A stretch of DNA of 64,000 nucleotides from Clostridia bacterium (GTDB lineage Bacteria; Bacillota; Clostridia; UBA1212). The translations under genes and the position numbers were made by a program. Positions 1 to 58,893 of the stretch are shown one piece after another. Position 1 is the stretch's first letter. Each line of letters begins with the position of its first letter. Below the pieces are notes generated by a model. The model saw only the letters and a list, made by a program, of their open reading frames with translations, did no database searches and had not been told where the DNA came from. The stretch is taken from contig JAZPZG010000081.1 of NCBI GenBank assembly GCA_045544575.1, forward strand, positions 578 to 64,577, given 5' to 3'.

Positions 1-738
1 CCCGGCGGTGAGAACATGTACCTTACAAGCGGTTCGGGAACTCCCGGTCAAACCGTTACTATAGGCTGGTTTGCTTCAGGCTTTGACGCAAACATCTTAG
101 GTGTTCAGTTGAATCTTAAGGCCCCTGAGGGTATCACTTTCGTAGGTTATACGCTTGGAACTGTGTCTGGAATAACTGACGGAACAAACTGTGCTACTGA
201 TAAATTCATTGGTATGGCTGATGCAGAGGAGGTTATTGACATTAACGGTAATGTTATGGCAATTACGCTCTTAATCGGAGAGGACGTTGCTCCCGGAACT
301 TATGATTTGATCATCGAAGTTATGATGGCAAGTGACGTAGACCTTAATGAGTTCCATTTCGCTGATGGTGCATCTGCTTCAATTACCGTAGTCAATGCTA
401 CGGCTGCACCTACAACAGCACCTACGACAGCTCCTACAACAGCACCTACGACGGCTCCTACAACGGCGCCCACGGCAGCACCTACAGAGACTCCCACAGA
501 AGCACCTACAGATGCTCCTTCGGATGACTATATGATTGGTGACGTAACAGGCGACGGCAAGGTTAATATGGCAGACGTTGTTGCTATCAGAAGATTCCTT
601 GTTAATCCGAATACCTATCCTTTGAAGGTTGAGGATGCAGGTGACGTAACAGGCGACGGCAAGATTAATATGGCAGACGTTGTTGCCATCAGAAGATATC
701 TTGTCAATGCAGAAACATATCCTCTTAAAAAATCTTAA
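1..738 (+). CDS. Dockerin type I domain-containing protein (5' partial; TAPT-repeat linker followed by duplicated Ca-binding dockerin segments)
   Basis: Frame 1 is open from nt 1, so the gene starts upstream of the window. A (TAPT)n linker sits at about aa 130-160. Two nearly identical 22-aa segments, GDVTGDGKVNMADVVAIRRFLV and GDVTGDGKINMADVVAIRRYLV, form the duplicated F-hand pattern typical of clostridial/ruminococcal type I dockerins. Confidence 0.7.
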   Translation, partial: PGGENMYLTSGSGTPGQTVTIGWFASGFDANILGVQLNLKAPEGITFVGYTLGTVSGITDGTNCATDKFIGMADAEEVIDINGNVMAITLLIGEDVAPGTYDLIIEVMMASDVDLNEFHFADGASASITVVNATAAPTTAPTTAPTTAPTTAPTTAPTAAPTETPTEAPTDAPSDDYMIGDVTGDGKVNMADVVAIRRFLVNPNTYPLKVEDAGDVTGDGKINMADVVAIRRYLVNAETYPLKKS

Positions 739-942: not shown

Positions 943-1824
943 ATGAAAAAGATTATTTCTTTGATCATAGCTGTTGCTATGATCGCAAGTATGGGCATCG
1001 TTTCATCTCTCGCTACTTTCGGTGCTGATATTTCATATGCACAGGTTGAGGGCGAGGACGGCATCGAGGGTGCTTATGAGGTTACTAAGTATTTTGATGC
1101 TTACACAGATGCAACGGGTTCTTCTGTTGTTTGGCTCAGTTCTGCTGACGCTTCTGTTATTCAGCGTATTGAGCTTAAGGTTCCCGCAGACTTCATCCAG
1201 TTTGGTTGCGGTACACATGCAGATCAGCAGTATAAGAATATTCTCAACGTAGCTATCTACGAGGATACAGGCGATTTGTTTGAGTCTGTTGATGGTGAGC
1301 CTATTGCTTCCGGTGAAGCTGAGGTTGCAAACTCTGCTTGGAGAACAGGTATTGAGCTTGAAGAGAGACTCATGCCCGGCGTTTACGTTCTTGAGCTTTC
1401 TACACCTAACTACAATATGAACTTCTGGATTGCTGCTTCTATGTATGCAGAGGGCATGGCTCCCGAAAGTACATACCATGAGGCTGTTACTACGGGTACT
1501 ATCGCAGGCGGTGCGGATCTTGTTAACTGTGCTGTTGCATACAGAACATACCTTGACAAGAGTGTTCCCGTTGAGACAGAGGCTCCTGAGACAGAAGCTC
1601 CCGTTGAAGAGACAGAGGCTCCTGCTGATGAGACAGAAGCTCCTGCTGATGAGACAGAGGCTCCTGCTGAAGAGACAGAGGCTCCTGCTACAACAGCTCC
1701 CACAACAGCTCCTACACAGGTTCCTGCTGAAGAGGAGTCAGGTTGCGGTTCTGTGATTGCTTCCGGTGCTGCTGTTATGGCAGTTATGGCTGCTGCTGTT
1801 GTATTTCTTAAAAAGAGAAAATAA
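943..1824 (+). CDS. Secreted hypothetical surface protein with ETEAP-repeat stalk and C-terminal GCGS/TM/KKRK anchor signal
   Basis: N-terminal signal peptide MKKIISLIIAVAMIASMGIVSSLATFGA. Tandem 8-aa ETEAPADE repeats encoded by 24-nt DNA repeats at about 1573-1700. The C-terminus is ...EEESGCGSVIASGAAVMAVMAAAVVFLKKRK, i.e. GCGS, then a hydrophobic helix, then a basic tail. Confidence 0.6.
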   Translation: MKKIISLIIAVAMIASMGIVSSLATFGADISYAQVEGEDGIEGAYEVTKYFDAYTDATGSSVVWLSSADASVIQRIELKVPADFIQFGCGTHADQQYKNILNVAIYEDTGDLFESVDGEPIASGEAEVANSAWRTGIELEERLMPGVYVLELSTPNYNMNFWIAASMYAEGMAPESTYHEAVTTGTIAGGADLVNCAVAYRTYLDKSVPVETEAPETEAPVEETEAPADETEAPADETEAPAEETEAPATTAPTTAPTQVPAEEESGCGSVIASGAAVMAVMAAAVVFLKKRK

Positions 1825-3744: not shown

Positions 3745-3796
3745 AAAGCGAGCAGGACAGGTAAGTTTATCTTATCTGTCCTGCTCGCTTTTTATT
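3745..3796. terminator. Bidirectional rho-independent terminator (perfect 16-bp stem)
   Basis: AAAGCGAGCAGGACAG...CTGTCCTGCTCGCTTT with T-runs on both strands. It lies between convergent rpmB (+) and the recG stop (-). Confidence 0.75.
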
Positions 3797-6700
3797 ACAA
3801 ATTAATAAGCTCCGGTGTCTTTCCGACAACATATCTGTAATATTGTTCATACTCATTATTTTCTTCTGATGAAAGAGTAGAGACAATTTCCTTTGCTGCT
3901 GATTGTGCTTCTTTAAGCGTATCAATGTCGTCATAGAGGTTTGCAAGCTTAAAGGTGGGCAGTCCGTGCTGTGCTGTTCCGAACAGTTCTCCGGGTCCTC
4001 TCAATTCAAGGTCTTTTTCGGAAATTTCAAATCCGTCTGTCGTAGAACACAATAGCTTTATTCTCTCCTGTGCGATTTCTGCCTTTGAATCACTTATTAA
4101 AGTGCAGTGTGATTGCTTAGCGCCTCTTCCGACACGTCCGCGTAACTGGTGAAGCTGTGATAGCCCGAATCGCTCTGCGTTTTCAATTACCATTATCGTG
4201 GCATTCGGTACGTCTACGCCAACCTCGATTACAGTCGTAGAAAAGAGTACGGATATTTCCCCTGCAGCAAAACGCCGCATTACAGCTTCCTTTTCTGCGG
4301 GCTTCATTTTGCCGTGAAGCAAGCCCGTTGTGATATCCGAAAATACCGTGCGGGATAATTTTTCATAATTTGAAACGGCTGAAATTGCACCGGGAAGAGA
4401 AGTATCCTCTGAAGCTTCTTCTTTATCCTCTACGAGAGGGTGTACTATATACGCCTGAAATCCGCTGCGTGCATTTGCGGCAACCCAATTGTAGACACGA
4501 TTACGCATCTCGCCCGTAGCAGGGTAGGTTTTTATGGGAAGTCTTCCGGTAGGCAGTGTGTCAAGCGTTGAGATATCAAGGTCTCCGTACAAAATGAGTG
4601 CAAGCGTTCTCGGGATAGGAGTTGCAGTCATTACAAGAATATCGGGAGTTACAGAGCTTAGCTCCGAAAGCATTGCACGCTGGCGAACACCGAAACGGTG
4701 CTGTTCATCGGTAATAACTATTCCTGCCTTGTGAAAACGGACGTCCTTTTGAATAAGTGCGTGAGTTCCGATAATGCAGTCAATTTCTCCTTTTGCAATT
4801 TTATCATGTATTTTGCGTTTGTTTGCAGATGTCAGGGCTCCTGTAAGAAGTCCTACGCGTATCCCGAATGGCTCTAACACTTTTTTGATGTTCCGGGCGT
4901 GCTGTTCAGCCAGAATTTCCGTCGGCGCCATGTATACCGCCTGGTATCCGTTTTTTATTGCCTTGTACATTGCCGCAACTGCAACAATGGTTTTTCCCGA
5001 ACCCACGTCACCTATGACAAGCCGATTCATTATTTTGGGGCTCTCCATGTCACTAAAAATATCGCTGATAACTTTTTGTTGTCCGTCCGTAAGCTTGTAT
5101 GGCAATGAACCGTAAAAATCTGTCATATCGACTTGACTAAAACGTATGCCATTAGATGAGGCACTTATCTCAACACTGCTTTTCATATGGAAGAGCATAA
5201 GCTGTAATTCGATAAGCTCGTCGAAAACAATGCGCTTGTGGGCCTTTTCTGCGGCTTTTTTATCGGAAGGGAAGTGAATGTGCCTTTTTGCAGCTTCCCT
5301 GCCAATTAAGCCGTAGGAGTCTCTGATTTTGAGCGGTATTTCACAGATATGGGCCTTTTTCTCTGCACTTACCTTTGAAAGACTGTCTTCTATTCTGATT
5401 GCGGCAGTTACTGCATCTCGTATTACTGACTGTGTCAATCCCTTTGTCAATGGATATATGGGGAGCAGTCTTTCAAAATTTGCAACTTTTAAAGCATCTG
5501 AAGCGTCTGTAAAAGCAGGGTTTAAAAGCTGTAATTGTTTACCGCCCGAAAAGCCGTCTGCCGATATTCTTCCGTAAAAAAGATAATCGCCGCCTACGTT
5601 TATTACACGCTTTACGTAGTCCTGATTGTAAAACGTTATTTTTATACTTCCCGTTGAGTCTTTTCCCGTAAAGAATGTGGCGGTAAGGCCTCTTCTAAGC
5701 ATTCTTGATGCTTTGCTTGTAATTCGGACAAGTACCGTGGCATCCGTATTCGGGATAAGCTCCGATATTGAGGTGCGTTTACTTCTGTCCTCGTATCTGG
5801 CAGGGTAGAGCTCCAATAAATCTCTGATTTTTTGTACTCCGAGCTTTGCAAAAAGCGCCGCTCTTGCATTTTTTATTCCGGGAAGCGTTGTAATGTCTTC
5901 GTCAAGCGGAGACTTTTTTTGTATGACATCAGTTTTTTTTTCTTCACAAGGCTCTTGATTAACGCTTTCGGAAGAACTTTTAAGCGTGCCTGCAACGACT
6001 CTTTCTATGTTTCCGAAGTCTTTAATTATCTTTATGTCGGTAAAGCCTGACTTTTCGAGAAGCTCGGCTACGTCGCGTGCTTGGTTTATTCCTACTTCAT
6101 ACATGAGAACACCGCCGTCGTTTAAACAGTGCGGGGCGTTTTCGGTAATTATGCGGTATGCGGAAAGGCCGTCGCTTCCGCCGTCAAGTGCGAGGTGCGG
6201 CTCATGGTCTTTTACGTTAACATCAAGCCCCTTTATGTCATCTGTGGGAATATACGGAGGATTTGACACGATAATATCAAACTTCTCACCGGGCTTGACG
6301 CTTTCGAGAAAATTGCCGCAGAGAAAATTGACCTTATCGTAAGAACCAAGTATGTTTTTACAGTTTTCCATAGCAATACTGAGTGCTTCGTGCGAAATAT
6401 CACTGCACGTGACGTCAGCCTCTGAAAGACTGTGCTTTGCGGAAATGCCGATACAGCCGCTTCCGCAACACAAATCAAGGATTTTGGGAGCTTTTTTGAC
6501 TTCTTTAGCTGTTTTTATTAATTCTTCAACAAGAATTTCTGTATCTCCGCGGGGAATTAAAACGGCGGGTGTAACCTTAAATTTAAGACCGTAAAAATCA
6601 GCCGTGCCGAGAATATATTGTATCGGCTCACCCTTGCAAAGTCGTATTACGGCAGAGGTAAATTCAGCAGATTTTTCCTGCACGGCTTCATCGGTATTAT

Positions 6701-6863
6701 CTATAACGAAGTCCGCGTTGGTCATTATAAAAAGACGGGAAACCTCGAAAAAATGCATAAGCAGCATATCGCAAAGCAGCATCGAAGAATCAATGCCGTT
6801 TGATTTCAGCTTACCTATGGTGTTTTTTCTAAGTTCCCCTAAAGTGATGTTATCCATAATCAA
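3795..6863 (-). CDS. recG: In-frame fusion of release-factor glutamine N5-methyltransferase PrmC/HemK (N-terminal) to ATP-dependent DNA helicase RecG (C-terminal)
   Basis: Residues about 1-295 carry the PrmC hallmarks: LDLCCGSGCIG (SAM-binding site), the NPPY motif in IVSNPPYIP, and DGG. From about aa 330 the RecG N-terminus LPGIKNARAALFAKLGVQKIRDLLELYPARYED follows, then the wedge domain, helicase motifs GDVGSGKT and DEQHRFG, and the C-terminal TRG region. No stop codon or internal ATG separates the two parts. Confidence 0.85.
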   Translation of the reverse strand: MIMDNITLGELRKNTIGKLKSNGIDSSMLLCDMLLMHFFEVSRLFIMTNADFVIDNTDEAVQEKSAEFTSAVIRLCKGEPIQYILGTADFYGLKFKVTPAVLIPRGDTEILVEELIKTAKEVKKAPKILDLCCGSGCIGISAKHSLSEADVTCSDISHEALSIAMENCKNILGSYDKVNFLCGNFLESVKPGEKFDIIVSNPPYIPTDDIKGLDVNVKDHEPHLALDGGSDGLSAYRIITENAPHCLNDGGVLMYEVGINQARDVAELLEKSGFTDIKIIKDFGNIERVVAGTLKSSSESVNQEPCEEKKTDVIQKKSPLDEDITTLPGIKNARAALFAKLGVQKIRDLLELYPARYEDRSKRTSISELIPNTDATVLVRITSKASRMLRRGLTATFFTGKDSTGSIKITFYNQDYVKRVINVGGDYLFYGRISADGFSGGKQLQLLNPAFTDASDALKVANFERLLPIYPLTKGLTQSVIRDAVTAAIRIEDSLSKVSAEKKAHICEIPLKIRDSYGLIGREAAKRHIHFPSDKKAAEKAHKRIVFDELIELQLMLFHMKSSVEISASSNGIRFSQVDMTDFYGSLPYKLTDGQQKVISDIFSDMESPKIMNRLVIGDVGSGKTIVAVAAMYKAIKNGYQAVYMAPTEILAEQHARNIKKVLEPFGIRVGLLTGALTSANKRKIHDKIAKGEIDCIIGTHALIQKDVRFHKAGIVITDEQHRFGVRQRAMLSELSSVTPDILVMTATPIPRTLALILYGDLDISTLDTLPTGRLPIKTYPATGEMRNRVYNWVAANARSGFQAYIVHPLVEDKEEASEDTSLPGAISAVSNYEKLSRTVFSDITTGLLHGKMKPAEKEAVMRRFAAGEISVLFSTTVIEVGVDVPNATIMVIENAERFGLSQLHQLRGRVGRGAKQSHCTLISDSKAEIAQERIKLLCSTTDGFEISEKDLELRGPGELFGTAQHGLPTFKLANLYDDIDTLKEAQSAAKEIVSTLSSEENNEYEQYYRYVVGKTPELINL

Positions 6864-19447: not shown

Positions 19448-19476
19448 TTGACCTTGCGGGCAATTTGTTGTAGAAT
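19448..19476 (+). promoter_or_regulatory. Sigma-A-type promoter (TTGACC, 17-nt spacer, TAGAAT) for the sortase operon
   Basis: -35 at 19448-19453 and -10 at 19471-19476. RBS AGAGGAGG precedes the ATG at 19505. Confidence 0.55.
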
Positions 19477-19504
19477 ATACTTTGACAGAAAGAGGAGGAT
19501 TGCG

Positions 19505-20494
19505 ATGGCACAGTCAAAGAGTTTTTATTATTCAAAAAAGAATACAAAGCCGTTCTGTGTACCGGAACAATATTCCCGTTATGTCAAAAATAACGAAAAA
19601 AGGCAAACGCAGGAACGCCGGATAAAAAAGAATGATAATAAAAAAGATAAGGGCTTTAATACCAATTCTCTTATCCGTGCGATAGCTTTTGTTGTTATGG
19701 CAGTTTCTTTGCTTGTTATTGTTGATCGGAGCAATGATTATTTGCGTGATATCGAATTCAATAAGACAAATAACGAAAAGTTTGAAATAAATTCACAGCC
19801 TAATGAACTCCTTTCAAAGAGAGAGCCGCCCTTATATCCCGTGCTTCCCGAGGGAAACGTGACAAGGCTTGATTATCCGGATATTTTTGATCCGGAAAGT
19901 ATTGCACAGTTCAGCATTGCGTACAAGGATTTTAGATTTTACATCTATATGCCGATGAAGCGCTCTACTATTAAATATCCTGTTTTTCAGTCTGATGACA
20001 ATGAGTATTATTTAAAGAGAAATTACGATGGAGAGCCGAATTTATCGGGAACTCTTTACCTTGATTATCGTAATGATTTTGAAACACTGAGACAGGACGA
20101 TATGTGGGGAACTCTTCACAGAAACAATATTGTATACGGTCATAATATGCAAAACGGTACTATGTTCGGTACTTTGAAGGAATATGCCGACAGAGAGTTT
20201 TTTAACAGCAATAATATGATTTATACTTATTCAGCTACAGAGGTTACTGCCTGGAAGATTTTTTCTGCATACGAAACTACCACTGAAAATTACTACATCG
20301 ATACCACCTTCGGCTCTGAGGCCGAGTACGTTTCATTCTTAAATAAATTAAAAAACGACTCGTTGCACCCGTCTGACGTTGCTCTTGATGCTTCAAGCGA
20401 TATCTTGACTTTATCAACGTGTCATAAATATGACGACCCCCGCGGCAGGTTTGTTATTCATGCGGTAAAGATTGCAAGAGCGCCGCTTGTGTAG
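19505..20494 (+). CDS. srtB: Class B sortase
   Basis: N-terminal transmembrane anchor. NNIVYGHNMQNGTMFGTLKEYADREFF aligns with the S. aureus SrtB His region (NTVIYGHHVGDNTMFDVLEDYL). Catalytic Cys in ILTLSTCH and Arg in RFVIHAVKI. Start placed at MAQSKSF by RBS position. Confidence 0.85.
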   Translation: MAQSKSFYYSKKNTKPFCVPEQYSRYVKNNEKRQTQERRIKKNDNKKDKGFNTNSLIRAIAFVVMAVSLLVIVDRSNDYLRDIEFNKTNNEKFEINSQPNELLSKREPPLYPVLPEGNVTRLDYPDIFDPESIAQFSIAYKDFRFYIYMPMKRSTIKYPVFQSDDNEYYLKRNYDGEPNLSGTLYLDYRNDFETLRQDDMWGTLHRNNIVYGHNMQNGTMFGTLKEYADREFFNSNNMIYTYSATEVTAWKIFSAYETTTENYYIDTTFGSEAEYVSFLNKLKNDSLHPSDVALDASSDILTLSTCHKYDDPRGRFVIHAVKIARAPLV

Positions 20495-20519
20495 GTATTT
20501 AAGCAGGAGATGATTTTTT

Positions 20520-21545
20520 ATGAGGATTATAAAAGACGACAATACCTACGGCTCTTTTTCTCTTTCCAATTTGTTTGTGACGGAGTATCTTACGGGACTT
20601 AGCGGCGATGCCGTAAAGCTGTATATTTACTTTGGTTATTTGCATGAGAACAGAAAAGACACTTCGGAGAGTGCGTTGCTGAATGTTTTGCAGTTTTCAG
20701 CGGAACGGTTAAAAAATGCAGTGTCAGAGCTTACCGAAAGAGAACTTATAGCTTTTGAAAACGGAACCCTTATTCTATCTGACGTAACTGAGCTTAAGCT
20801 TAAAAAAAGATACGGAAGCATTAGTACTTCGGGATGTACGTTAAGCAGTGAAAACAATTCGGAGCTTGATGAGGTCATAAGGACCGTACAATGTGAATAT
20901 TTCGGCGGCAAAATGACTCGCAAGTGGTACGAGCTTATAAGGTCTTTGGGCGCGAAGCTTGATCCGGAGGTTATATTGCTGTTATTTCAGCACTGCGAGC
21001 AGTATTGTGAAAAGCCGTTGAAAAAGGCATACGTAGAAAAGGTTGCCGAGAATTGGCAAGCGGAGAATATTAAGAGCGCCAAGGATCTTCAGGAATATTT
21101 AGACGTACGAGCGAAACTGGGAAGGTTTGTTGATTTTATCCGAAAAAAGATGAATCGAAACGCTCCGTTTATGGACAGCGAGATTTCCGTAATGCGTAAA
21201 TGGCTTCTTGATTATGGTTATGGGGAAGATGAGCTTTCCGTTGTGCTTGATTGGACAAGATTTAACAATCCCACCATAGGCGCTTTTGATAAGCTTATCA
21301 CAACATGGCACGGTTTGGGATTGAAAAATGCTGCGGAGATAAAAGATTATCTTGAAAAAAATAAAAAAACCTCAGGAAGTGACAAAAAGGCGACTTCCGG
21401 TAAAAGCGATAAAACAGGCTTTACAAGTCCTGTCGGTAATTTTACGCAACGTGAATATTCTGATGATTTTTTTACCGCGCTTACTGAGGGAAGACCGTAT
21501 AAGAAAACTGAGGACAATAAGGAAGAATATACGGAGGGTACGTAA
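20520..21545 (+). CDS. DnaD-domain replication initiation/membrane attachment protein (B. subtilis DnaB-like)
   Basis: N-terminal winged-helix DDBH1-like region and two DDBH2-like repeats with YxxxIxxxW-type motifs (KWYELIRSL...; MRKWLLDYGY...ITTWHGLGLK). Confidence 0.6.
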   Translation: MRIIKDDNTYGSFSLSNLFVTEYLTGLSGDAVKLYIYFGYLHENRKDTSESALLNVLQFSAERLKNAVSELTERELIAFENGTLILSDVTELKLKKRYGSISTSGCTLSSENNSELDEVIRTVQCEYFGGKMTRKWYELIRSLGAKLDPEVILLLFQHCEQYCEKPLKKAYVEKVAENWQAENIKSAKDLQEYLDVRAKLGRFVDFIRKKMNRNAPFMDSEISVMRKWLLDYGYGEDELSVVLDWTRFNNPTIGAFDKLITTWHGLGLKNAAEIKDYLEKNKKTSGSDKKATSGKSDKTGFTSPVGNFTQREYSDDFFTALTEGRPYKKTEDNKEEYTEGT

Positions 21546-21548
21546 TTT

Positions 21549-22559
21549 ATGAAAGACAGTATTGACGTTCAAAGAGAGGTCGCATCCGTATTATCGGCCA
21601 GAAGAATTAAGGCGGCGAGCGTTGCCGCAGAAAGATTTTCTGAGGTCTGCGAGAAAATACCGGAATACAGCGATGCGGATGAAGCCGTAAAACGTATAGG
21701 CGTACGCCTCGGCAGACTTGCAATTGAGGGTGGTAAAGGCAGTGAAAAGTATTCATTGATTCAACAGGAGCTTTCGAAAAAGTCAGAGGAGAGAAAGGCG
21801 CTTCTTGTGAGCGGAGGATTTGCCCCTGACTTTTTGGAAAACGTTTATACCTGCCCTTTGTGCAAGGATACGGGAGAAAGAAAGGAAGACGGTTTGCAGA
21901 GCAGTATCTGTAGCTGTTATATGAAGCTTTACACCGAAAAGCTTCAAAAAGAATCAAACGTTGCATCAAACGTTGGCTTTGAAGCGTTCCTTTTAAAGTA
22001 TTACAGCAAGGACACTTCTACCGGAAATGCTTCGCCGTTTGACAAGGCGGCTTTAGCACTTGCAAAAGCAAAGCACTTTGTCGAGACTTTTGGGACAGAT
22101 GATGCAAAAGATATTTTATTTACGGGCGGGCCGGGCGTAGGAAAATCATTTTTGTGCAGTTGTATTGCAAATGAGCTTATGAAAAAAGGTGTTCCCGTGC
22201 TTTATATATCATCTGCAGAATTGTTTGATACTCTTACTTACTATGGTAAGGACGAGGAACGCAACTCGAAACGTGAGCTTCTTGAAAAGATTTCGACAAG
22301 CGTTGATTTGCTTATATTAGACGACCTTGGTGCTGAAAAGCAATCCGCGGCACGTTACGGTATACTGCTTGACGTATTAAACCGCAGGGCCGCAAATAAG
22401 AATAAAAGAACGGTTATCTCTGCCAATCTTTCTCTCCAAAAGCTTAAGAACGTTTACTACGACGAGCGTGTTTTTTCAAGGCTTGTGTCGTTTGAGATTT
22501 GCGAGCTTACGGGTGACGATATCAGGATAATTAAGAAATTTGAAAATGCAGGTGTATGA
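21549..22559 (+). CDS. dnaI: Primosomal helicase loader DnaI/DnaC-like AAA+ ATPase
   Basis: N-terminal Zn-binding Cys cluster (CPLCKDTGER...CSCY), Walker A FTGGPGVGKSF and Walker B LLILDDLGAE. The start is 3 nt after the upstream gene's stop. Confidence 0.75.
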   Translation: MKDSIDVQREVASVLSARRIKAASVAAERFSEVCEKIPEYSDADEAVKRIGVRLGRLAIEGGKGSEKYSLIQQELSKKSEERKALLVSGGFAPDFLENVYTCPLCKDTGERKEDGLQSSICSCYMKLYTEKLQKESNVASNVGFEAFLLKYYSKDTSTGNASPFDKAALALAKAKHFVETFGTDDAKDILFTGGPGVGKSFLCSCIANELMKKGVPVLYISSAELFDTLTYYGKDEERNSKRELLEKISTSVDLLILDDLGAEKQSAARYGILLDVLNRRAANKNKRTVISANLSLQKLKNVYYDERVFSRLVSFEICELTGDDIRIIKKFENAGV

Positions 22560-22562
22560 TTT

Positions 22563-23123
22563 ATGAAAAAAAGTATTTTTTTAGTTTTAATTACTGTTTT
22601 TGTTGCAATAATGGGTTGTGTAAGCATTAATGCGGCAACCGTCAGAATTGACGACGACCCGTGGGATACGGCAGCCGCAAATAACAATATTGCCGCCTTT
22701 GAATGTGTTGCAACAAACGTTGCGGCATACCAGTGGTACATGGTAAAAGCAGGTGATGATCCGTTAAATACCGATTCTCATGTTTTGTTAGAGGACGGCG
22801 CGATTAAAAACGGAGATTTGTCTCTAAACGGTGTAAATTCTTCGATTCTTGTAGTTCCCGCCTTTGAGGAAACCGACGGTTGCTACTTTATATGCAAAGT
22901 AAAAGGAAATGACGGAACCGAGCTTACGTCTCTTGCTGCACAGTTAACTGTAAATTACGGTGGTTCAGGTTCATCAAATAATAACCCCGGTGCGGGAGAC
23001 GGAACGTCTAACGACAATAATACTGTTACACCGGAGAAAAAGGGCTGCGGAAGTGTTGTTTCCGGTTTCTCTGCCGTTGCAGTTCTTTTGTGCACGGCAT
23101 TAATTCTTAAAAGAAAGTCATAA
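22563..23123 (+). CDS. Small secreted protein with C-terminal GCGS/TM/KRKS anchor signal
   Basis: Signal peptide MKKSIFLVLITVFVAIMGCVSINAATV. Gly/Ser/Asn-rich stalk. C-terminus ...PEKKGCGSVVSGFSAVAVLLCTALILKRKS. The start is 3 nt after the dnaI-like stop. Confidence 0.55.
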   Translation: MKKSIFLVLITVFVAIMGCVSINAATVRIDDDPWDTAAANNNIAAFECVATNVAAYQWYMVKAGDDPLNTDSHVLLEDGAIKNGDLSLNGVNSSILVVPAFEETDGCYFICKVKGNDGTELTSLAAQLTVNYGGSGSSNNNPGAGDGTSNDNNTVTPEKKGCGSVVSGFSAVAVLLCTALILKRKS

Positions 23124-23143
23124 AACGTTATAAAAAATAACAG

Positions 23144-23183
23144 ATTCGCCCGCAAAGGAAAATCCTCTGCGGGCGAATTTTAT
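23144..23183. terminator. Bidirectional rho-independent terminator (perfect 11-bp stem)
   Basis: ATTCGCCCGCA...TGCGGGCGAAT with T/A runs on both sides, between convergent genes. Confidence 0.7.
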
Positions 23184-28407: not shown

Positions 28408-30756
28408 ATGAAATGTAAACTGATTGCATGTGATATGGACGGGACATTACTTGACTCGAACCACGTCATTTCGCAAAAAAACATTGATGCCGTAAAACGA
28501 TGCAGCGAAAAAGGAATTAAGTTTGTGCTTTGTACGGGAAGACCCGTTCAGGCGATTGAGTCGTTTCGGGCAGAGCTTGGCCTTAATACACCTGTTATAG
28601 CATATAACGGAAGCAAGATAGTTGATCCCGAAAGCAACGAGGATCTTTATTGTGAGTGTCTGTCTGAAGAAAACGTGGAAAAAATACTGGCTCTTGCAGA
28701 AGAAAACGAGTCTGTCGTAACTGTCTGGGCAGATGATAAGCTATACATTAATAAAACCACCACGGCATCGAAGCTTTATGCAAAGCTTGCAAATGAAACT
28801 CCTGTGGCGTTCGATTTAGCAGACAGGGAGCTTTTTAGAGGAAAGAAGATCAATAAGATTCTATGGATACAAACCGCTGAGGAAGCAGCGCGATTGCTTC
28901 CCTCTTTAAAAAGTGCGCTTCCTTCGGATGTAAGCTGCTTTACCTCGAATCCGGAATATATTGAATTTGTAAACTCGAAGGTATCAAAGGGCAGGGCACT
29001 TTCTATGCTTTGTAAAAAGCTTGGAATAGACGTGAATGAGACGGTTGCGATAGGTGACGGTGAGAACGACATTGATTTGCTAAAAACTGCGGGCATGGGT
29101 ATTGCCGTGGCGAATGCATCAGATAACGTAAAAAAAGCGGCGGATAAGATTACTTCGTCAAATGACGAGAACGGTGTTGCGAGAGTAATTTACGCAATAA
29201 CGAAATCAAAGAAAAAGTCAGTTGATTCAAAGCCTGCACTTACAAGAAAGCAACGAGAAAAACTAAATGCGGAAATTCGCGCAAAAAGAAGGCGCAAAAA
29301 GGCTGAATATATTGATATAAAGGGTATTTTTAAACCATCTGTTATAATAATGTCGGTGCTTATAATGGTTTTATCGTTTGTTGCACTGAAGCTTATCGTA
29401 GACGGTATTGCTTTGCGTAACAATAAGTCTGCACTTACAGGTGACAGTATCTTGGGTGAAAGCAATTATAACGCAGGGAATACGGACTTTGAGGTAAAGG
29501 ACATAAAAGAAATATCACAGGGCCTCGCCACTCTTAAGTCTACGCACACCGAATGGACAAACTTTGCAGACGACCCCCAACAAAACGGCTTCTTTTGCAT
29601 TGCAACAGGCAGTGCAGATAAAAGATTGGTATATAATCTTGATCCGAAAAACATTTGTAATATGGGATATTCCTTGTCGGATTTTAAGTACATTTGGGTT
29701 GACTCCGTGAACACGGGCTTTTATGCCGTTATTAATATTCCGGGAGAAGTCGTTGACCTAACGGATTATTATATTTTGGTGCACAATGACACCGGAAATC
29801 TTGCATCAAGACTTATTATTAATTGCTATGAGGCTCGTGTCGTAAAATTAAAGAATACGATTTTAACAGGCACGTTGCTTGCTCCCGATGCAACGGTTGA
29901 ATACGACGGAACATCGGTGTACGGACAGGTTTATGCCAATGCGTATACGGGCACTCGTTCATTTTATAAAGATATTCCTTTCGGAGGATATTCCATTGTG
30001 ATTGAGGAAATCGGAGCAGTGGATTTTATGAACGTTGCAATACGAGCTAACGTATTAAAGTGGCTTAAGGAAAATTATCCCGAGATCTATGCGGGTCATT
30101 CGGATGATTACAGACTTAACACCGTAGATCTTACCTATGTTACGGAATTGATTCTGGATGACGTTATGATTGCCGATTTGGGTGATGACTTAAAGTATTT
30201 CAAGAACCTTAAAAAGCTTTCCGTTAAAAGAACGAAGATGACATCCCTTGACGTAAGCTTCATAAGTGAGCTTGAGGAGCTGGATATTTCGGAAACTGAA
30301 ATTTCGGAGGTTACCTTTGCAAAAAATAATTCTCTTAAGGTATTAAAAGCAGACAGAACAAAGCTTGCAGAGCTTGATATGTCTCTGCTTGAAGGCCTTA
30401 AAGAACTAAGCATTTCGGAAAATAACTTTACCGTGATGCCCGACGTATACAGTCTTGTAAACCTTACCGTGCTCAACGTAAGTAAAAATAAGTGTATAAC
30501 CTCTTTTGAGTTCAGCTCTCTTGCAAAATTGGAGAAGCTCAATATAAGTGAGTGTTCTCTGACTGAGCTTAATTTAAACGGAGCTAAGGCGCTTAAAGAA
30601 CTTCATTGCAGCTATAATTCCATACGTGAGCTTGACCTTACACCTGCAGGCTCCTTGACGTACTGTGAGGCATACGGTACTTCTTTTAAGAGCATTAATG
30701 CGGCAGGTATGAACGTAAGGGTTTCGTGCCATGAAAATGCAACCGTGATAAAATAA
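28408..30756 (+). CDS. Cof-type HAD-IIB phosphatase fused via a TM segment to a C-terminal leucine-rich-repeat (LRR) domain
   Basis: aa 1-265: HAD motif I DMDGTLLD, Cof-type cap, and motif III GDGENDIDLL. aa 270-330: basic linker (RKQREKLNAEIRAKRRRKK) and transmembrane helix IIMSVLIMVLSFVALKLIV. aa 560-782: at least eight LRRs (LKKLSVKRTKMTSLDVSFISELEELDISETEISEV...LKELHCSYNSIRELDL). Confidence 0.7.
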   Translation: MKCKLIACDMDGTLLDSNHVISQKNIDAVKRCSEKGIKFVLCTGRPVQAIESFRAELGLNTPVIAYNGSKIVDPESNEDLYCECLSEENVEKILALAEENESVVTVWADDKLYINKTTTASKLYAKLANETPVAFDLADRELFRGKKINKILWIQTAEEAARLLPSLKSALPSDVSCFTSNPEYIEFVNSKVSKGRALSMLCKKLGIDVNETVAIGDGENDIDLLKTAGMGIAVANASDNVKKAADKITSSNDENGVARVIYAITKSKKKSVDSKPALTRKQREKLNAEIRAKRRRKKAEYIDIKGIFKPSVIIMSVLIMVLSFVALKLIVDGIALRNNKSALTGDSILGESNYNAGNTDFEVKDIKEISQGLATLKSTHTEWTNFADDPQQNGFFCIATGSADKRLVYNLDPKNICNMGYSLSDFKYIWVDSVNTGFYAVINIPGEVVDLTDYYILVHNDTGNLASRLIINCYEARVVKLKNTILTGTLLAPDATVEYDGTSVYGQVYANAYTGTRSFYKDIPFGGYSIVIEEIGAVDFMNVAIRANVLKWLKENYPEIYAGHSDDYRLNTVDLTYVTELILDDVMIADLGDDLKYFKNLKKLSVKRTKMTSLDVSFISELEELDISETEISEVTFAKNNSLKVLKADRTKLAELDMSLLEGLKELSISENNFTVMPDVYSLVNLTVLNVSKNKCITSFEFSSLAKLEKLNISECSLTELNLNGAKALKELHCSYNSIRELDLTPAGSLTYCEAYGTSFKSINAAGMNVRVSCHENATVIK

Positions 30757-36309: not shown

Positions 36310-37743
36310 ATGAGTTCACAAAAATCAAAAACAAAAGAGCTTTTTACAATCTGCAGTGATTTCTTCAAAAGCAGAAAGGCAGAGTGCTTTGTATGCTTTG
36401 CATGCCTTTGTGTGCTTTTCGGAATGTATTTTTCATGGAAAGCGGAGCAAACGGGTATTTCACGTGAATCTGCGCGAGCATCATTGTGGGTAACATTGCT
36501 GTTTGCTGCCTTGGGTGTGATTTTTGTTTTTAAATGGTTTGCAGATTTCAGGACCGCGGCAAAAGGCGGGGCTTGTAAGGCAAGTGCCGTAGGAAATATT
36601 GAAAAGAGTGACCGAACCGTTGCTTTGACAATATTTTTTACGTGTATCCTGGTAAACGTACTTTTGCTGTTCTTTCAATGTGCTCTGGGATATATTATCG
36701 GGGCATATGGCTCACTTTCAGACGGTTTGTCACGCTTTAATCAGCTTGACAGTGATCAGTATCGTTTTATAGCCGAAGGCTGGTATACAAATAGCGGTGA
36801 TCCCACAACCGACCTTAGGTTGGTTTTCTTTCCCGGTTATCCGATATTGATCCGCATTGCGTACTTTTTTATACGTGATTACATGATGGCGGCTTTGACG
36901 GTATCGCATCTGTGTATGGCGGGAGCGGGCAGCTTTATGTACCTTCTTGTCAGACTTGACTATGATAAAGACACTGCGCTTCGTGCGGTGAAATTTATGT
37001 ATTTGGTTCCTGCCGGATTATTCTTTATAACACCGATGAGTGAATCTGTTTTCTTGTTTGTTACTCTTGCTGCATTGTATTTTTCACGCAGAGGAAATAT
37101 GCTTCCCGCTGTGTGCTTTGGATTCTATGCTGCCTTTACGCGTTCCTTGGGGGTCATCGTAATGGTTCCGATGGTATACGAGCTTATAAAGAAAACTCTT
37201 GAAGAAAGGCCCGTGACAAGAAAAGACCGGGTAAAAAGGGCAGGGGATTTTGCATTGACGTTGGTAGTTCCGGCGGGCCTTGCAAGTTATTTTTTGATTA
37301 ACAAGCTCGTTACGGGCGATGCGTTTAAGTTTATGGAATACCAGAAGGAGCATTGGTATCAGGAGATAGACTACTTTTTCAACACTGCAAGCTATCAGAT
37401 GGCAAATTTTGTCAACAAGATGGATAATGACAGCATACAGGTAGGTTTTGCCCTGTGGGGAATGGGTCTTTGTGCACTCTTCGGTACGCTTATAATGTTT
37501 ATTATTTCGGCAAAGCGTATGCGTGCTTCCTATATAGGGTATTCAATTGTTTACTACGTTATGGCAATGGGTGCGACGTGGCTGCTGAGTGCCCCGAGAT
37601 ATGCCGCTGCAATGTTTACTCTTCCTGTTTCTTTTGCGTTGATTACCAAGAATAAGAAAGTTGACACTGCTGTGACGATTTTACTTACAGCGATATACGT
37701 TATATACACAATAATGTTTGTAAATCGCTGGCAGGTTTGGTGA
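36310..37743 (+). CDS. Polytopic membrane protein, GT-C-like glycosyltransferase candidate
   Basis: At least ten hydrophobic helices, 477 aa. It occupies the position where mutL normally follows mutS. Confidence 0.35.
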   Translation: MSSQKSKTKELFTICSDFFKSRKAECFVCFACLCVLFGMYFSWKAEQTGISRESARASLWVTLLFAALGVIFVFKWFADFRTAAKGGACKASAVGNIEKSDRTVALTIFFTCILVNVLLLFFQCALGYIIGAYGSLSDGLSRFNQLDSDQYRFIAEGWYTNSGDPTTDLRLVFFPGYPILIRIAYFFIRDYMMAALTVSHLCMAGAGSFMYLLVRLDYDKDTALRAVKFMYLVPAGLFFITPMSESVFLFVTLAALYFSRRGNMLPAVCFGFYAAFTRSLGVIVMVPMVYELIKKTLEERPVTRKDRVKRAGDFALTLVVPAGLASYFLINKLVTGDAFKFMEYQKEHWYQEIDYFFNTASYQMANFVNKMDNDSIQVGFALWGMGLCALFGTLIMFIISAKRMRASYIGYSIVYYVMAMGATWLLSAPRYAAAMFTLPVSFALITKNKKVDTAVTILLTAIYVIYTIMFVNRWQVW

Positions 37744-37785
37744 TTTTCGGATTGTTTCAATGATGTATCATAGGAGGGCTTGATT

Positions 37786-39204
37786 TTGGGCAACAACTTT
37801 TTGGAAGAAAAAAAGGATTTTATTAAAGAAATTCTTATTATAGCAATTGCGGCGGTTTTGTTCCTGTCGTTGGTGATGAACGTTTATAAAAAGGCGGACT
37901 CCGAGGCTCTTTCGGATCATTCGGCGTACGATAGCTATACGTTGCAGGCTCTTGCTTGGCGTGACGGCAGAATTTCTCTTGATAAAAATTATCCGTGGCT
38001 CGAGTTGGCTATTGTCAATGATAAATATTTTTCAACCCATGATAAAGATGATTATATGGCATATCGTGAGTTTTTCGGCGATGTAGGAGTTACGATTGAA
38101 CACCAAGAAGGAAATGAGTATTACGTGAGTTTTCCGCCGTTTCCGTCAGTCCCCATGTTTATTTTGAGCTTTATTTACGGCGAGGAAACGCCTAATAACA
38201 TGGTGTGTGTGCTTTATGCGGTCGGCGCCTTTGTTTTTGCGATTATGCTGTGCAGACGATTGGGGTATTCTTTTCTGGTTTCCGTTTGCGGTGCTTCGTT
38301 TATGAGCGTTGCTTCCTCTGCATTTTTCCTTTGTACCAATAAAATGGCAGGCGGTGTGTGGTTTCAGGCACAAACATTGTCGTTGTTACTGACGGTTGCA
38401 GCCTTCTTTTTTGTGTTAGGAAAACATGATGGGGAATTATACACGGCTTTTATTTTGTTGGCTCTGGCGGTGGGATGTCGTCCTTTTCAGCTGATATATT
38501 TTGTCTTCTTTGCTTACATAGCAGCGAAAAAATATGATTTTAAAATTTTAAAAACAATCAAATTTTATATTGCGCCTGCAGTAGTAGGTGTGTTGTATAT
38601 GATATACAATTACGTACGTTTCGGTAACGTTCTGGAATTTGGTCACAATTATTTACCTGAGTTTATGCGTATGCCTGCAGGTCAGTTCGGAACGGAATAC
38701 TTTAAGCCGAATTATGAAAATCTGATGAAAGAAATTCCAAAACTTTCTGTAGAGGGATTAAGCTTTAATCGCTTCGGTTTTGCATTTTGGGTTGCAAACG
38801 TGCTTTTTGTTTTAACTGCCGCAGCGTTGATTTTCTGTGCTTTTCATAATACAAAAAGCTTGTATCAAAAGAAAAAGTATTCAAGAAAGACTGTAAACGT
38901 TTTGAAAGATATTAAAGAAGGCTTTGTACCTGAAATTGTTATTTTGACGGTATTGATGATTTTCCACATAGTATTTCTGCTGTTGCATAAGACGTTGGGC
39001 GGTTGGCAGTTTGGATCAAGATATACAGTTGACCTGCTTCCTGCTGCATTGACGGCGGCAGGCTTTGCGCTCAAACCGATTTTTTCGGAGAAGAACTCTG
39101 AAGACTCTTATGAAAAAATAAAAGCACCCGCAGGTGCTTTGGCAATGGTATTATTGGTGAGCGGCAGTATTCTCAATATCTGCGGCGCATTGATGATGTT
39201 TTGA
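37786..39204 (+). CDS. Polytopic membrane protein, GT-C/ArnT-PMT-like glycosyltransferase candidate (paralogous architecture to the upstream gene)
   Basis: 474 aa with at least ten transmembrane helices and a periplasmic-type loop. TTG at 37786 is preferred because of AGGAGGG 7 nt upstream. Confidence 0.35.
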   Translation: MGNNFLEEKKDFIKEILIIAIAAVLFLSLVMNVYKKADSEALSDHSAYDSYTLQALAWRDGRISLDKNYPWLELAIVNDKYFSTHDKDDYMAYREFFGDVGVTIEHQEGNEYYVSFPPFPSVPMFILSFIYGEETPNNMVCVLYAVGAFVFAIMLCRRLGYSFLVSVCGASFMSVASSAFFLCTNKMAGGVWFQAQTLSLLLTVAAFFFVLGKHDGELYTAFILLALAVGCRPFQLIYFVFFAYIAAKKYDFKILKTIKFYIAPAVVGVLYMIYNYVRFGNVLEFGHNYLPEFMRMPAGQFGTEYFKPNYENLMKEIPKLSVEGLSFNRFGFAFWVANVLFVLTAAALIFCAFHNTKSLYQKKKYSRKTVNVLKDIKEGFVPEIVILTVLMIFHIVFLLLHKTLGGWQFGSRYTVDLLPAALTAAGFALKPIFSEKNSEDSYEKIKAPAGALAMVLLVSGSILNICGALMMF

Positions 39205-42119: not shown

Positions 42120-42803
42120 TTGAGTACAAAAAATAATGATTCGGCTACTAAAAAATTAGTGGTAAGTGCGATGTTTTGTGCGATAGCATACATTGCGGTA
42201 TTTGTTTTCAGATTTAAGGTCAGTTTTTTAACCTTTGACTTCAAGGATGCGTTTATTGCCATATTGTCGTTGCTTTACGGTCCTTTTTACGGTGTGATAT
42301 GCTCCGGTGTTGTGGCAGTGCTTGAAACTTTTACGGTAAGTGATACGGGATATTACGGTTTGATTATGAATTTCCTATCAAGCGGAAGCTTTGCTCTTGC
42401 AACCGGCCTGGTATATAAGTACAGGAGAACGTTTTTCGGTGCAGTTCTTGCTGCTGTTACCGGAGTGTTCGCAATGCTTTCAGTAATGCTTCTTGCAAAT
42501 CTTTTTATTACCCCGTATTTTATGGGACAGGAGAGATCTGCCGTAGTTGCTATTATTCCTACGCTTTTGTTGCCGTTTAATCTATGCAAAGGCATTATGA
42601 ATGCGGCGATTATGCTGCTTTTATATAAGCCGATAGTTAACTTGCTTCGCAAGACGAAATTGGTAAGAGTAGGCGAGCATAATTATAAGATTGGGCTGAA
42701 ATCCGTGCTGTTGGTGCTGTTTTCGGTACTGTTTATCATTCTTGCTGCAGTTGTTATCATTGTTTTTTTAGACGGCAATTTAGATTTCTTCGGCTTGCTT
42801 TAA
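42120..42803 (+). CDS. ribU: ECF transporter S component, riboflavin-type (RibU-like)
   Basis: Small six-TM protein lying behind the FMN riboswitch. TTG start 9 nt after the RBS. Confidence 0.55.
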   Translation: MSTKNNDSATKKLVVSAMFCAIAYIAVFVFRFKVSFLTFDFKDAFIAILSLLYGPFYGVICSGVVAVLETFTVSDTGYYGLIMNFLSSGSFALATGLVYKYRRTFFGAVLAAVTGVFAMLSVMLLANLFITPYFMGQERSAVVAIIPTLLLPFNLCKGIMNAAIMLLLYKPIVNLLRKTKLVRVGEHNYKIGLKSVLLVLFSVLFIILAAVVIIVFLDGNLDFFGLL

Positions 42804-57978: not shown

Positions 57979-58878
57979 TTAATTAGTTTTCTTTTTTGTA
58001 AAAAGAATAACGGCAACTAAAAGTATGGCAGAGAGACTTCCCGTTACGGCACTGCCGCAACCTGAGTTTTTGCTTCCGTCTGTTTTTTCAGTGCTGCTAG
58101 GGGCGTCCTTCGTAGGAGAGGGAGAAGCATCTTCTGTGGGGGCTTCCGTAGTGTTTGTCGGAAGCTCAACGGAAGTTCCCGGAGCAAGACGGAGCACCAA
58201 GGGGCAGCCGTTTTCGGCAACTTTTTTAATGCTTATTGAGGTAGCACCGGAATAGCCGGAAGCTGAAATATCAATTTTTCCTTCACTGTCGGTTGTAAAT
58301 TCCTTTTCTGAATTACCGTCACTTAATATAACCGTCATTCCTATGACAGGATTTTCCTTAACGATAGGGGTAAAATCCTCTGCGTAAGTAGTGTCGGAGC
58401 TGATAAAAGAAATGATACCTTCCTTTATATTATCGGTGTTAATTACAGGGAACTGCATTCCGATTCCGAAGGGGTCACCGTAGTAAAACAATACTTCATC
58501 GCCGTTGTTTAACGTACAGCCGCTCATGCCGGCAACAGGGCTTGTTTCGTTTATCATAAACAGCCAACCGTCCCAACCGCCGAAGCAACCTGCGGCATCA
58601 CCGTTAATGTCGGTTATGTAGTCGTCTGTAGCTCCCGTAACGGTTACGTCATCGTTAGCCTCGTCAAAAGCAACGATGGCTTCTTGGAGGGTGAGCGTTC
58701 CGTCCTCTGTGGGGAGGGTAACATTGTCACAAAAAATTGTCTCGTTTATTCCTTCAATTCTCAGTGAGAACGTAACCGTATCATTACTTTCTGCAGACAC
58801 GGGGAGAGTAAAAAAGGTGCAAAAAGTGCACAAAAACAAAACCGCAGCTGCGGCTTTGCCTAAAATAGTTTTTTTCAT
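57979..58878 (-). CDS. Secreted DUF4430-like protein with TEAP/Ser-rich stalk and C-terminal GCGS/TM/KKK anchor signal
   Basis: Signal peptide MKKTILGKAAAAVLFLCTFCTFFTLPVSA. DUF4430-like core (GGWDGWLFMINE...GDEVLFYYG). C-terminus ...GSKNSGCGSAVTGSLSAILLVAVILFTKKKTN. Confidence 0.6.
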   Translation of the reverse strand: MKKTILGKAAAAVLFLCTFCTFFTLPVSAESNDTVTFSLRIEGINETIFCDNVTLPTEDGTLTLQEAIVAFDEANDDVTVTGATDDYITDINGDAAGCFGGWDGWLFMINETSPVAGMSGCTLNNGDEVLFYYGDPFGIGMQFPVINTDNIKEGIISFISSDTTYAEDFTPIVKENPVIGMTVILSDGNSEKEFTTDSEGKIDISASGYSGATSISIKKVAENGCPLVLRLAPGTSVELPTNTTEAPTEDASPSPTKDAPSSTEKTDGSKNSGCGSAVTGSLSAILLVAVILFTKKKTN

Positions 58879-58893
58879 AAAACATGGTCCTTT

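Follow-up and report, generated by a model that had tools for sequence, protein, structure and literature searches.

C-terminal sorting signals determine which proteins a bacterium displays on its surface. In a stretch of 64,000 nucleotides from a Clostridia bacterium (contig JAZPZG010000081.1), three genes were identified which code for secreted proteins ending in the same module, consisting of the residues GCGS, one hydrophobic helix and a Lys/Arg-rich end. This module was designated the GC tail, and the whole 64,000-nucleotide stretch is referred to as the window. The open reading frames (ORFs) and the coordinates of their parts, which were confirmed by translation, are listed in Table 1. 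Each of the three proteins consists of a Sec signal peptide, a passenger unrelated to the other two, a low-complexity stalk, the residues G-C-G-S, a segment of 18-19 hydrophobic residues and a Lys/Arg tail. Here, as for the family members described below, the Sec signal peptides were read from the sequence.

Table 1. Genes, protein parts and putative signals of the GC-tail loci in the window.
Feature	Position	Strand	Description
GC-tail protein 1 gene	943..1824	+	293 residues; signal peptide, beta-rich passenger (no family assigned), ETEAP-repeat stalk, tail
Protein 1, Sec-type signal peptide	943..1023	+	MKKIISLIIAVAMIASMGIVSSLATFG; read from the sequence, cleavage site approximate
Protein 1, stalk	1576..1740	+	Thr/Glu/Ala/Pro (ETEAP repeats)
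Tail 1	1741..1821	+	GCGS 1741..1752; helix VIASGAAVMAVMAAAVVFL 1753..1809; KKRK 1810..1821; 38.6 bits with the independent tail model
GC-tail protein 2 gene	22563..23123	+	186 residues; orphan passenger
Protein 2, stalk	22968..23042	+	Gly/Ser/Asn-rich
Tail 2	23043..23120	+	GCGS 23043..23054; helix VVSGFSAVAVLLCTALIL 23055..23108; KRKS 23109..23120; 32.6 bits with the independent tail model
GC-tail protein 3 gene	57979..58878	-	299 residues; signal peptide, DUF4430 domain, Thr/Pro/Ser stalk, tail
Protein 3, stalk	58063..58158	-	TNTTEAPTEDASPSPTKDAPSSTEKTDGSKNS; Thr/Pro/Ser/Asp
Tail 3	57982..58062	-	GCGS 58051..58062; helix AVTGSLSAILLVAVILFT 57997..58050; KKKTN 57982..57996; 20.8 bits with the independent tail model
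Class B sortase gene	19505..20494	+	PF04203; TIGR03064 at 154.6 bits (cutoff 153.75); TLSTC motif
Promoter-like site	19448..19476		upstream of the sortase gene; consensus match
16-bp palindromic hairpin	23144..23178		between convergent genes; consensus match; likely terminator of the run from the sortase gene to GC-tail gene 2

All three ORFs were found where a preliminary description of this DNA had placed them, with the C-terminal ends quoted there, EEESGCGSVIASGAAVMAVMAAAVVFLKKRK for protein 1, EKKGCGSVVSGFSAVAVLLCTALILKRKS for protein 2 and KNSGCGSAVTGSLSAILLVAVILFTKKKTN for protein 3. With the tails and signal peptides confirmed and the passengers lacking mutual similarity, its claim of one tripartite tail on three unrelated secreted proteins holds. 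Its account of the stalks held only in part, since a low-complexity stalk is present in all three proteins, but that of protein 2 is not of the Thr/Pro/Glu type. The dockerin protein, encoded at 16..738, lacks the tail, as had been stated.

In a six-frame scan of the window for ORFs that end in a hydrophobic run of 15 residues or more plus a basic tail, only these three proteins were found, all with GCGS at the junction. In BLASTP comparisons among them, significant similarity was confined to tail and stalk, and after trimming of the last 32 residues proteins 1 and 3 still matched weakly in their low-complexity stalks, with no other similarity remaining. A recent duplication of the tail on the DNA level was rejected, since the Ser codons differ (TCT, AGT and AGT) and the hydrophobic segments have diverged. 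A chance motif was also rejected: in addition to the outcome of the six-frame scan, a hidden Markov model (HMM) built from 259 tails of proteins outside the window recovered exactly the three window tails, at 20.8 bits or more, while the next best of 1110 stop-to-stop segments of the window scored 3.5 bits.

Among the passengers, only that of protein 3 could be assigned to a Pfam family (PF14478, DUF4430, 35.6 bits); no domain was matched by proteins 1 and 2 in the Pfam search. For full-length protein 2, no homologue other than the protein itself was found among 5.8 billion proteins, and a sequence search of the PDB with protein 3 gave no match. AlphaFold2 models calculated without alignments had a predicted local distance difference test (pLDDT) value of 40 for protein 1 and 39 for protein 2, the model of protein 1 being beta-rich at low confidence. 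DUF4430 proteins are often linked to cofactor uptake. GC-tail gene 3 is located directly downstream of a gene for a flavodoxin-like or NADPH-dependent flavin mononucleotide reductase-like protein (58894..59532, within 57979..59532 on the minus strand), and the S component of an energy-coupling factor transporter is encoded at 42120..42803 (plus strand).

The GC tail is not confined to the window. A word-indexed search with the three window tails led to three metagenomic fragments ending in KKGCGSV.G....AV...AAAVALKKKD (five candidates were scored), and the same kind of search with a profile of 100 tails returned short gene fragments only. In an exhaustive HMMER search with a six-sequence profile against 1.84 billion cluster representatives, 454 proteins were identified at E<=1e-3, 19 of them at E<=1e-10; the profile held some stalk columns, so that these E-values are somewhat inflated, while the positional regularity of the matches is unaffected. 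The best 150 of the 454 matches were all located at the extreme C-terminus of proteins ranging from 49 to 2082 residues, and in 149 of the 149 distinct tails among them G-C was found 24-29 residues from the end. The preliminary description had named an occurrence in these three proteins only as an outcome that would speak against a sorting module; this is ruled out by the 454 cluster representatives, and the recurrent, sorting-signal-like module proposed there is carried by a large family with many diverse passengers.

The family consensus is K-x-G-C-G-S-V-[IV]-G-[FM]-[GS]-A...AAAAV-A-L-K-K-K-D; with the common alternatives written out, the logo reads K-x-G-C-[GA]-S-[VA]-[IV]-G-[FM]-[GS]-A-x-A-[VI]-L-x-A-A-A-A-A-V-[AV]-L-K-K-K-[DE]. 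In a sequence logo of 233 distinct tails, numbered relative to the Cys, both the Gly at -1 and the Cys are present in 100%, values which are partly built in because the tails were chosen by a G-C at the right distance; however, G-C was present in all of the 150 best HMM matches without being required. The logo further shows Lys at -3 (53%), Gly (72%) or Ala (16%) at +1, Ser at +2 (92%), Val at +3 (73%), Ile or Val at +4 (90%), Gly at +5 (83%), Phe or Met at +6 and Gly or Ser at +7, followed by an Ala-rich helix without a conserved Pro and a K-K-K-D end with Asp as the last residue in 75%. Upstream of -3, no Pro, Thr, Leu or Asn was found in register, only the composition of the stalk (Thr, Glu, Ala and Pro). 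Ala, Lys, Thr and Ser occur as variants at +1, and Gly and Cys are the only invariant residues of the family tails, so that the invariance of the Cys postulated from the window proteins extends to the whole family. By their sequences, the window tails are divergent members of this family, with the conserved Gly one position later and with the ends KRKS, KKRK and KKKTN.

Several further forms of the tail were observed. A stalk-less subtype, ...LEKYGC[TS]..G.GSL..LL.LAAAAY.IRK[KR]K, directly follows a folded domain and is often found in tandem with standard tails, and a double-Cys variant contains the residues GCGGC (NGCGGCKS...), which recalls the GCGC motif of MYXO-CTERM (loci of the two forms: L019, L020, L040, L046, L060, L061, L065; L097). 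Two mini-proteins, P0007 with 65 residues and P0010 with 74 residues (L068:491-715), consist of an N-terminal lipoprotein signal with the lipobox LTGC or LAAC, a short linker of Glu, Pro, Ala and Lys, a GC tail and nothing else. If they were processed at both ends, about 25 residues would remain, bounded by a Cys on either side.

The distribution of the tail was analysed with a DNA pattern encoding G-C-[GA]-S-[VA]-[IV]-G, 15 codons and L-K-K-[KD], using one genome per GTDB species; from its information content, about one chance match is expected. In total, 75 matches were located in 67 stretches, which belong to 33 species-representative genomes, and in 62 of the 67 stretches the pattern was located in a tail ORF at its true C-terminus. 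Matches in Bacteroidia and Glaciecola are not of this kind and are probably the chance ones. The genomes with tails bear the labels Clostridia, Eubacteriales, Clostridiales, Oscillospiraceae, Candidatus Scatosoma and Clostridium sp. CAG:448, with one "uncultured bacterium"; nearly all are metagenome-assembled genomes, and the sources named are goat, deer, yak or sheep gut and a fecal sample. On the whole, the tail was located almost exclusively in uncultured Clostridia of animal and human guts. These hosts belong to the Bacillota and presumably have a single membrane (monoderm). Even with this strict pattern, matches occur on up to seven contigs per genome, and tandem tail paralogues about 1.84 kb apart are common. 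Arrays of two to three paralogous tail genes with this spacing, coding for proteins of about 530-580 residues without a Pfam match, were observed at L008, L019, L020, L027, L028, L029 and other loci. The same pattern identified 32 stretches with the same tails in metagenome contigs, and gave no match in 2.9 million viral contigs.

Across the loci, 86 tail ORFs were collected, and a Sec signal peptide is present at the start of all those that are complete. Most of the 74 full-length members have no Pfam family; Laminin_G_3 was found in 10 and NAGPA in three of them, with single cases of F5/8 type C, LTD, Big_4 and others, and the tail itself was covered by no Pfam model. Among the C-terminal helix-plus-basic tails of the loci and the window, 78 of 81 carry G-C, a figure which is biased because the loci were selected for tails; one plain helix anchor in the loci (L064) is without a GC-type motif. 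Taken together, it is very probable that the GC tail is a real, conserved C-terminal sorting or anchoring signal and that such signals form a large, lineage-specific family in Clostridia of gut and rumen.

The preliminary description had left it undecided whether the tail corresponds to a described sorting class, and had proposed a comparison with the curated CTERM models. For this comparison, the window proteins, the isolated window tails, 100 family tails and 10 selected variants were searched against NCBIfam (release 20.0), and none of them matched any model at its cutoff; likewise, no Pfam model reached its cutoff on the tail. A dedicated NCBIfam model would be expected to match nearly all of the 100 tails. 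The most frequent weak matches were to Rumino_NPXTG (NF033846), with 45 of the 100 tails; tails scored individually gave 11-19.5 bits (cutoff 23.5), and the consensus tail reached 19.5 bits over profile positions 5-29 of 30, which comprise the helix and the basic end. On the assumption that NPXTG occupies positions 1-5 of the profile, the Cys falls on the Thr and the Gly at +1 on the Gly of that motif. Synerg-CTERM (TIGR04564, cutoff 22.5) was weakly matched by 32 of the 100 tails, with 12.3 bits for window tail 2 and 14.2-15.9 bits for the consensus and variants; the best match among the 100 tails (E=1.1e-4) is estimated at about 22-23 bits, so that a few members may be borderline. GVDTG_CTERM (NF058571) was matched by 18 of the 100 tails, with 12.6-15.8 bits for tails scored individually (cutoff 29), and LPXTG_anchor (TIGR01167) by 11 of them at 12.6-14.4 bits (cutoff 15.9). 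A few tails weakly matched the GG_III-CTERM, PGF-CTERM, Loki-CTERM and ArtA-dependent glycoprotein models, none near the cutoff. Several models of full-length, MYXO-CTERM-anchored families gave weak tail matches; the MYXO-CTERM domain model itself (TIGR03901) was absent among the listed matches of every tail, and the JDVT-CTERM and CGP-CTERM models were not matched by the tails.

Thus, a characterised sorting domain matching the tail was not found, and the assignment to something other than an LPXTG or NPQTN motif is supported both by the sortase-signal models, which stay below their cutoffs, and by the lack of in-register Pro or Thr upstream of the Cys. In literature searches, Cys-type signals were found only for Myxococcota, Proteobacteria, Synergistota and Thermococcales, with no description of one for Clostridia or Firmicutes. 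The tail is a variant with its own signature, G-C-G-S-V-I-G, an Ala-rich helix, a KKKD end and hosts among gut and rumen Clostridia, for which no curated model exists. Since no Pfam or NCBIfam model covers it, proteins with this tail probably appear in annotations as hypothetical proteins or as proteins with an ordinary membrane helix.

The only candidate for a sorting enzyme encoded in the window is a class B sortase, the gene of which ends 2 kb upstream of GC-tail gene 2. It belongs to a run of four genes on the plus strand (19448..23178), coding for the sortase, a DnaB_2/DnaD-like protein, a DnaC/DnaI-like protein and GC-tail protein 2, with gaps of 25, 3 and 3 nucleotides. From this arrangement, the sortase gene and GC-tail gene 2 possibly form one operon, and this run is the only local link between the tail and a sorting enzyme. 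The presence of a sortase gene in a possible operon with replication-loader genes is unusual. CPBP, rhomboid and exosortase-like proteins were not detected in the window by searches with domain models.

The neighbourhoods of tail genes elsewhere were screened for CPBP motifs (EExxxR, FxxxH and HxxxN/D with at least four helices) and for the sortase motif TLxTC, by BLAST clustering of 401 ORFs and by Pfam searches with those neighbours that recurred or had multiple helices. The genes found repeatedly near tail genes code for AraC-type regulators (8 loci), a YgjV-like membrane protein (5 loci), phosphatases, a fucosidase-like protein and transporters. Together with the tandem tail arrays, the AraC-type regulators and YgjV-like proteins suggest an inducible, possibly carbohydrate-related family of surface proteins. 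In CAG:448, an Lgt gene is located 3.6 kb from a tail gene (L055), probably by chance. Two further look-ups of genomic context gave no sorting protease.

The reading which we favour, at a probability of roughly 0.38, is that the Cys is lipidated at the outer face of the membrane, after which an intramembrane protease would remove the helix. Because Sec signal peptides are present, the proteins are taken to be exported. The C-terminal helix with its Lys-rich end would then stop transfer and, following the positive-inside rule, leave the end inside, so that a flexible stalk would hold the passenger on the outside and the invariant Gly-Cys would come to lie precisely at the outer face of the membrane. 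G-C being the only invariant residues, and conservation reaching from the Cys into the helix as expected for recognition within the membrane, the tail is likely to be read by a membrane-embedded partner. The thiol of the Cys may be lipid-modified, with an Lgt-like transfer of diacylglyceryl as the leading candidate by analogy, and a housekeeping intramembrane endopeptidase, most likely a myxosortase-like member of the CPBP/Rce1 family, again by analogy, would cut just past the Cys and free the helix. The outcome would be a surface protein anchored by a lipid at its C-terminus, which mirrors the arrangement of an N-terminal lipoprotein.

This analogy is drawn from the four known Cys-containing tripartite signals, MYXO-, JDVT-, Synerg- and CGP-CTERM, all of which pair with a CPBP protease (10.1101/2023.06.07.544157). 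For MYXO-CTERM, with the generic motif GCGC, cleavage by MrtX was shown to depend on the Cys and to be functional in E. coli, for which reason Lgt is the leading candidate for the lipidation; that Lgt can act on a substrate of this kind is a hypothesis for MYXO-CTERM as well (PMC11980579). Extended to the GC tail, this would make the tail the fifth Cys-type C-terminal sorting system and the first in the presumably monoderm Bacillota, in which an unnamed housekeeping intramembrane enzyme and a lipid transferase would produce dozens of C-terminally lipid-anchored, Sec-exported proteins per genome. This broader proposal is put forward tentatively, with the odds somewhat against it.

Several points weigh against lipidation and cleavage. 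Both steps, like the lipid or thioester chemistry and the dedicated enzyme suggested in the preliminary description, are proposed for the GC tail by analogy. The known Cys-type signals are all from archaea or from diderms, in which type II secretion completes the sorting, and what a monoderm would gain from a lipid in place of a helix is not obvious. In its helix and basic end, the tail is similar to the Ruminococcus NPXTG signal to the extent given by the model scores above, and a class B sortase gene lies in a possible operon with one of the tail genes. Neither the window nor the surroundings of tail genes, amounting to about 460 kb in genomes and about 186 kb at further, mostly metagenomic loci, yielded a gene for a CPBP, rhomboid or exosortase protein; the CPBP motif screen was a crude one. 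For a housekeeping system with many substrates, the absence of the enzyme from the vicinity of tail genes is expected and is therefore uninformative rather than negative; for MYXO-CTERM, likewise a housekeeping multi-substrate system, the enzyme is not expected beside the substrate genes (10.1101/2023.06.07.544157).

The same absence would also be accounted for if the tail were an unprocessed C-terminal transmembrane anchor, in which G-C-G-S-x-x-G served helix packing of the GxxxG type, oligomerisation, disulfide formation or reversible S-acylation at the membrane face. The spacing G(+1)-x-x-x-G(+5) is that of a classic motif of packed helices, a helix alone suffices for anchoring in a monoderm, and in a narrow clade with many tandem paralogues the conservation of the tail could partly reflect recent common descent. 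However, a signature motif is not normally kept by simple anchors, and the plain anchor at L064 is without one. G-C and its distance from the end are constant across passenger families without detectable similarity, and both were kept in the divergent lineage of the window despite drift of the remaining helix. Since every earlier-analysed tripartite signal with an invariant Cys also proved to be processed (10.1101/2023.06.07.544157; PMC11980579), a plain anchor is regarded as rather unlikely, while it deserves more weight than the two explanations that follow. In one of these, the GC tail would be a sortase signal that has diverged from the NPXTG signal of the Ruminococcus type, with K-x-G-C-G in place of N-P-x-T-G, and a class B or other sortase would cleave it and link the protein to peptidoglycan. 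Sortases are the standard anchoring route in Bacillota, to which the hosts belong, and the KKKD or KKKED end is like that of Gram-positive sorting signals; the weak Rumino_NPXTG matches and the tightly spaced gene run of the window, with its promoter-like site upstream and hairpin downstream, point in the same direction. Yet the similarity to the NPXTG model lies only in the helix and basic end, the would-be P4 and P3 positions are unconserved, and Lys, Thr, Ser or Ala at +1, as well as the YGC[TS] subtype, would provide poor P1' residues. These variants fit a Cys-centred signal better than a sortase pentapeptide, as judged from the tail sequences. Furthermore, the promoter and terminator calls are consensus matches only, and no sortase gene was found in about 650 kb around tail genes outside the window, where few are expected by chance. 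A sortase signal is thus considered unlikely.

Least probable among these explanations is a signal processed by an enzyme other than a CPBP protease, such as a rhomboid of the rhombosortase type, a member of the exosortase/archaeosortase family or another protease, whether or not the new C-terminus is then transferred to a lipid or wall polymer. The Gly-rich start of the helix with its small residues, G-C-G-S-V-I-G, recalls the helix-destabilising features of rhomboid substrates and GlyGly-CTERM, and PGF-CTERM with ArtA yields a C-terminal lipid anchor in the absence of an outer membrane (10.1101/2023.06.07.544157). A few tails do match the GG_III-, PGF- and Loki-CTERM and ArtA-dependent models, but all of these matches are far from the cutoffs; GlyGly-, PEP- and PGF-CTERM are without an invariant Cys, and no rhomboid or exosortase-like gene was detected in the sampled neighbourhoods.

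Apart from the tail genes, the window is ordinary chromosomal DNA coding for RecG, RecJ, RelA/SpoT, MutS, queuosine enzymes, RNase J, ArgG/H, HflX, Lon and NusB, and it also encodes glycoside hydrolases in addition to the dockerin protein. Three observations on other genes are recorded here. On the minus strand, 3795..6863 forms one frame of 1022 residues, in which a PrmC/HemK-like methyltransferase (residues 10-209) is followed by a complete RecG helicase (residues 329-1010); this could be a real fusion or the product of a far-upstream TTG start chosen by the ORF finder. At 28408..30756 (plus strand), an ORF of 782 residues codes for a Cof-type HAD phosphatase (residues 6-261) together with leucine-rich repeats and the putative adhesin domain pAdhesive_15; it is odd to find an enzyme of cytoplasmic type linked to domains of surface type. 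Two tandem genes at 36310..37743 and 37780..39204 (plus strand) code for proteins of about 475 residues with 7-8 predicted helices and no Pfam or NCBIfam match, which by eye give the impression of GT-C-type envelope glycosyltransferases.

Each new class of sorting signal has so far led to a new sorting enzyme, as in the case of sortase, exosortase, archaeosortase, rhombosortase and myxosortase. In uncultured Clostridia of gut and rumen, the GC tail is borne by hundreds of protein clusters, most of them uncharacterised and, where domains are recognisable, often lectin-like or carbohydrate-related; the tail therefore provides a simple sequence handle for predicting the surface proteome. If the tail is processed like MYXO-CTERM, Cys-dependent sorting would extend to single-membrane bacteria without a type II secretion step, which would offer a simpler system for asking which enzyme lipidates the Cys. 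A fifth Cys-type system would represent a main route of surface display in these abundant uncultured Clostridia and a natural test of the lipidation of a Cys by Lgt in an inverted topology. With three substrates and one sortase encoded within 64 kb, the organism of the window would be a practical starting point if it were cultured.

Compared to known systems, the GC tail shares with N-terminal lipoproteins, which are processed by Lgt and Lsp at the lipobox, a Cys amid small residues ([G]-C-[GA]-S) at the outer membrane face beside a single helix, and in tail-bearing genomes these lipoproteins also have a Thr/Glu/Ala/Pro stalk between anchor and domain. The topology is inverted, however, with the helix C-terminal to the Cys, no Leu at -3 and no hydrophobic region before the Cys, and the lipobox [LVI][ASTVI][GAS]C does not apply to a Cys which precedes the helix and follows charged stalk residues. 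The residues after the Cys in true lipoproteins of tail-bearing genomes are varied (Asp, Gly, Thr, Ser and Gln), and recognition of the tail by Lgt therefore receives no specific support from them. The Ruminococcus NPXTG signal is similar in its Gram-positive Clostridia hosts, in a motif adjoining the helix, in the Ala-rich helix and in the KKKD-type end; in contrast to this and other class B sortase signals, the GC tail has no pentapeptide, and its conservation is centred on G-C and runs downstream. PGF-CTERM, the signal recognised by archaeosortase A in Haloarchaea, is also a C-terminal tripartite signal after a Thr-rich stalk in a single-membrane envelope, for which a C-terminal lipid anchor is the proposed outcome; the PGF motif has no Cys, the enzyme belongs to another family, and one of the 100 GC tails was a weak match.

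Among the Cys-type signals, JDVT-CTERM differs in the DP motif before the helix, and in CGP-CTERM the Cys is followed by GP, where the GC tail has Gly or Ala and then Ser at +1 and +2. Synerg-CTERM with MrtS in Synergistota shares with the GC tail a short signal, a Ser/Gly cluster and a single invariant Cys abutting the helix. Its helix is Leu-rich with an invariant Pro (10.1101/2023.06.07.544157), whereas that of the GC tail is Ala-rich without Pro, and the phylum is a different one. From MYXO-CTERM with the myxosortase MrtX (Myxococcota; TIGR03901), the GC tail differs in a Lys-rich end with a terminal Asp instead of an Arg-rich end and in an Ala-rich helix which begins only two residues past the Cys. 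Its hosts are Clostridia and not Myxococcota or Bradymonadales, no MrtX, MrtC or MrtP enzyme was found near the tails, and, the hosts being presumably monoderm, no outer membrane or type II secretion step would be involved. In other respects the two systems are alike: both signals are tripartite, often preceded by a disordered linker, and placed on many Sec-exported, mostly uncharacterised surface proteins per genome, and in both an invariant Cys lies within a Gly-rich signature, generically GCGC in MYXO-CTERM and GCGS in the GC tail.

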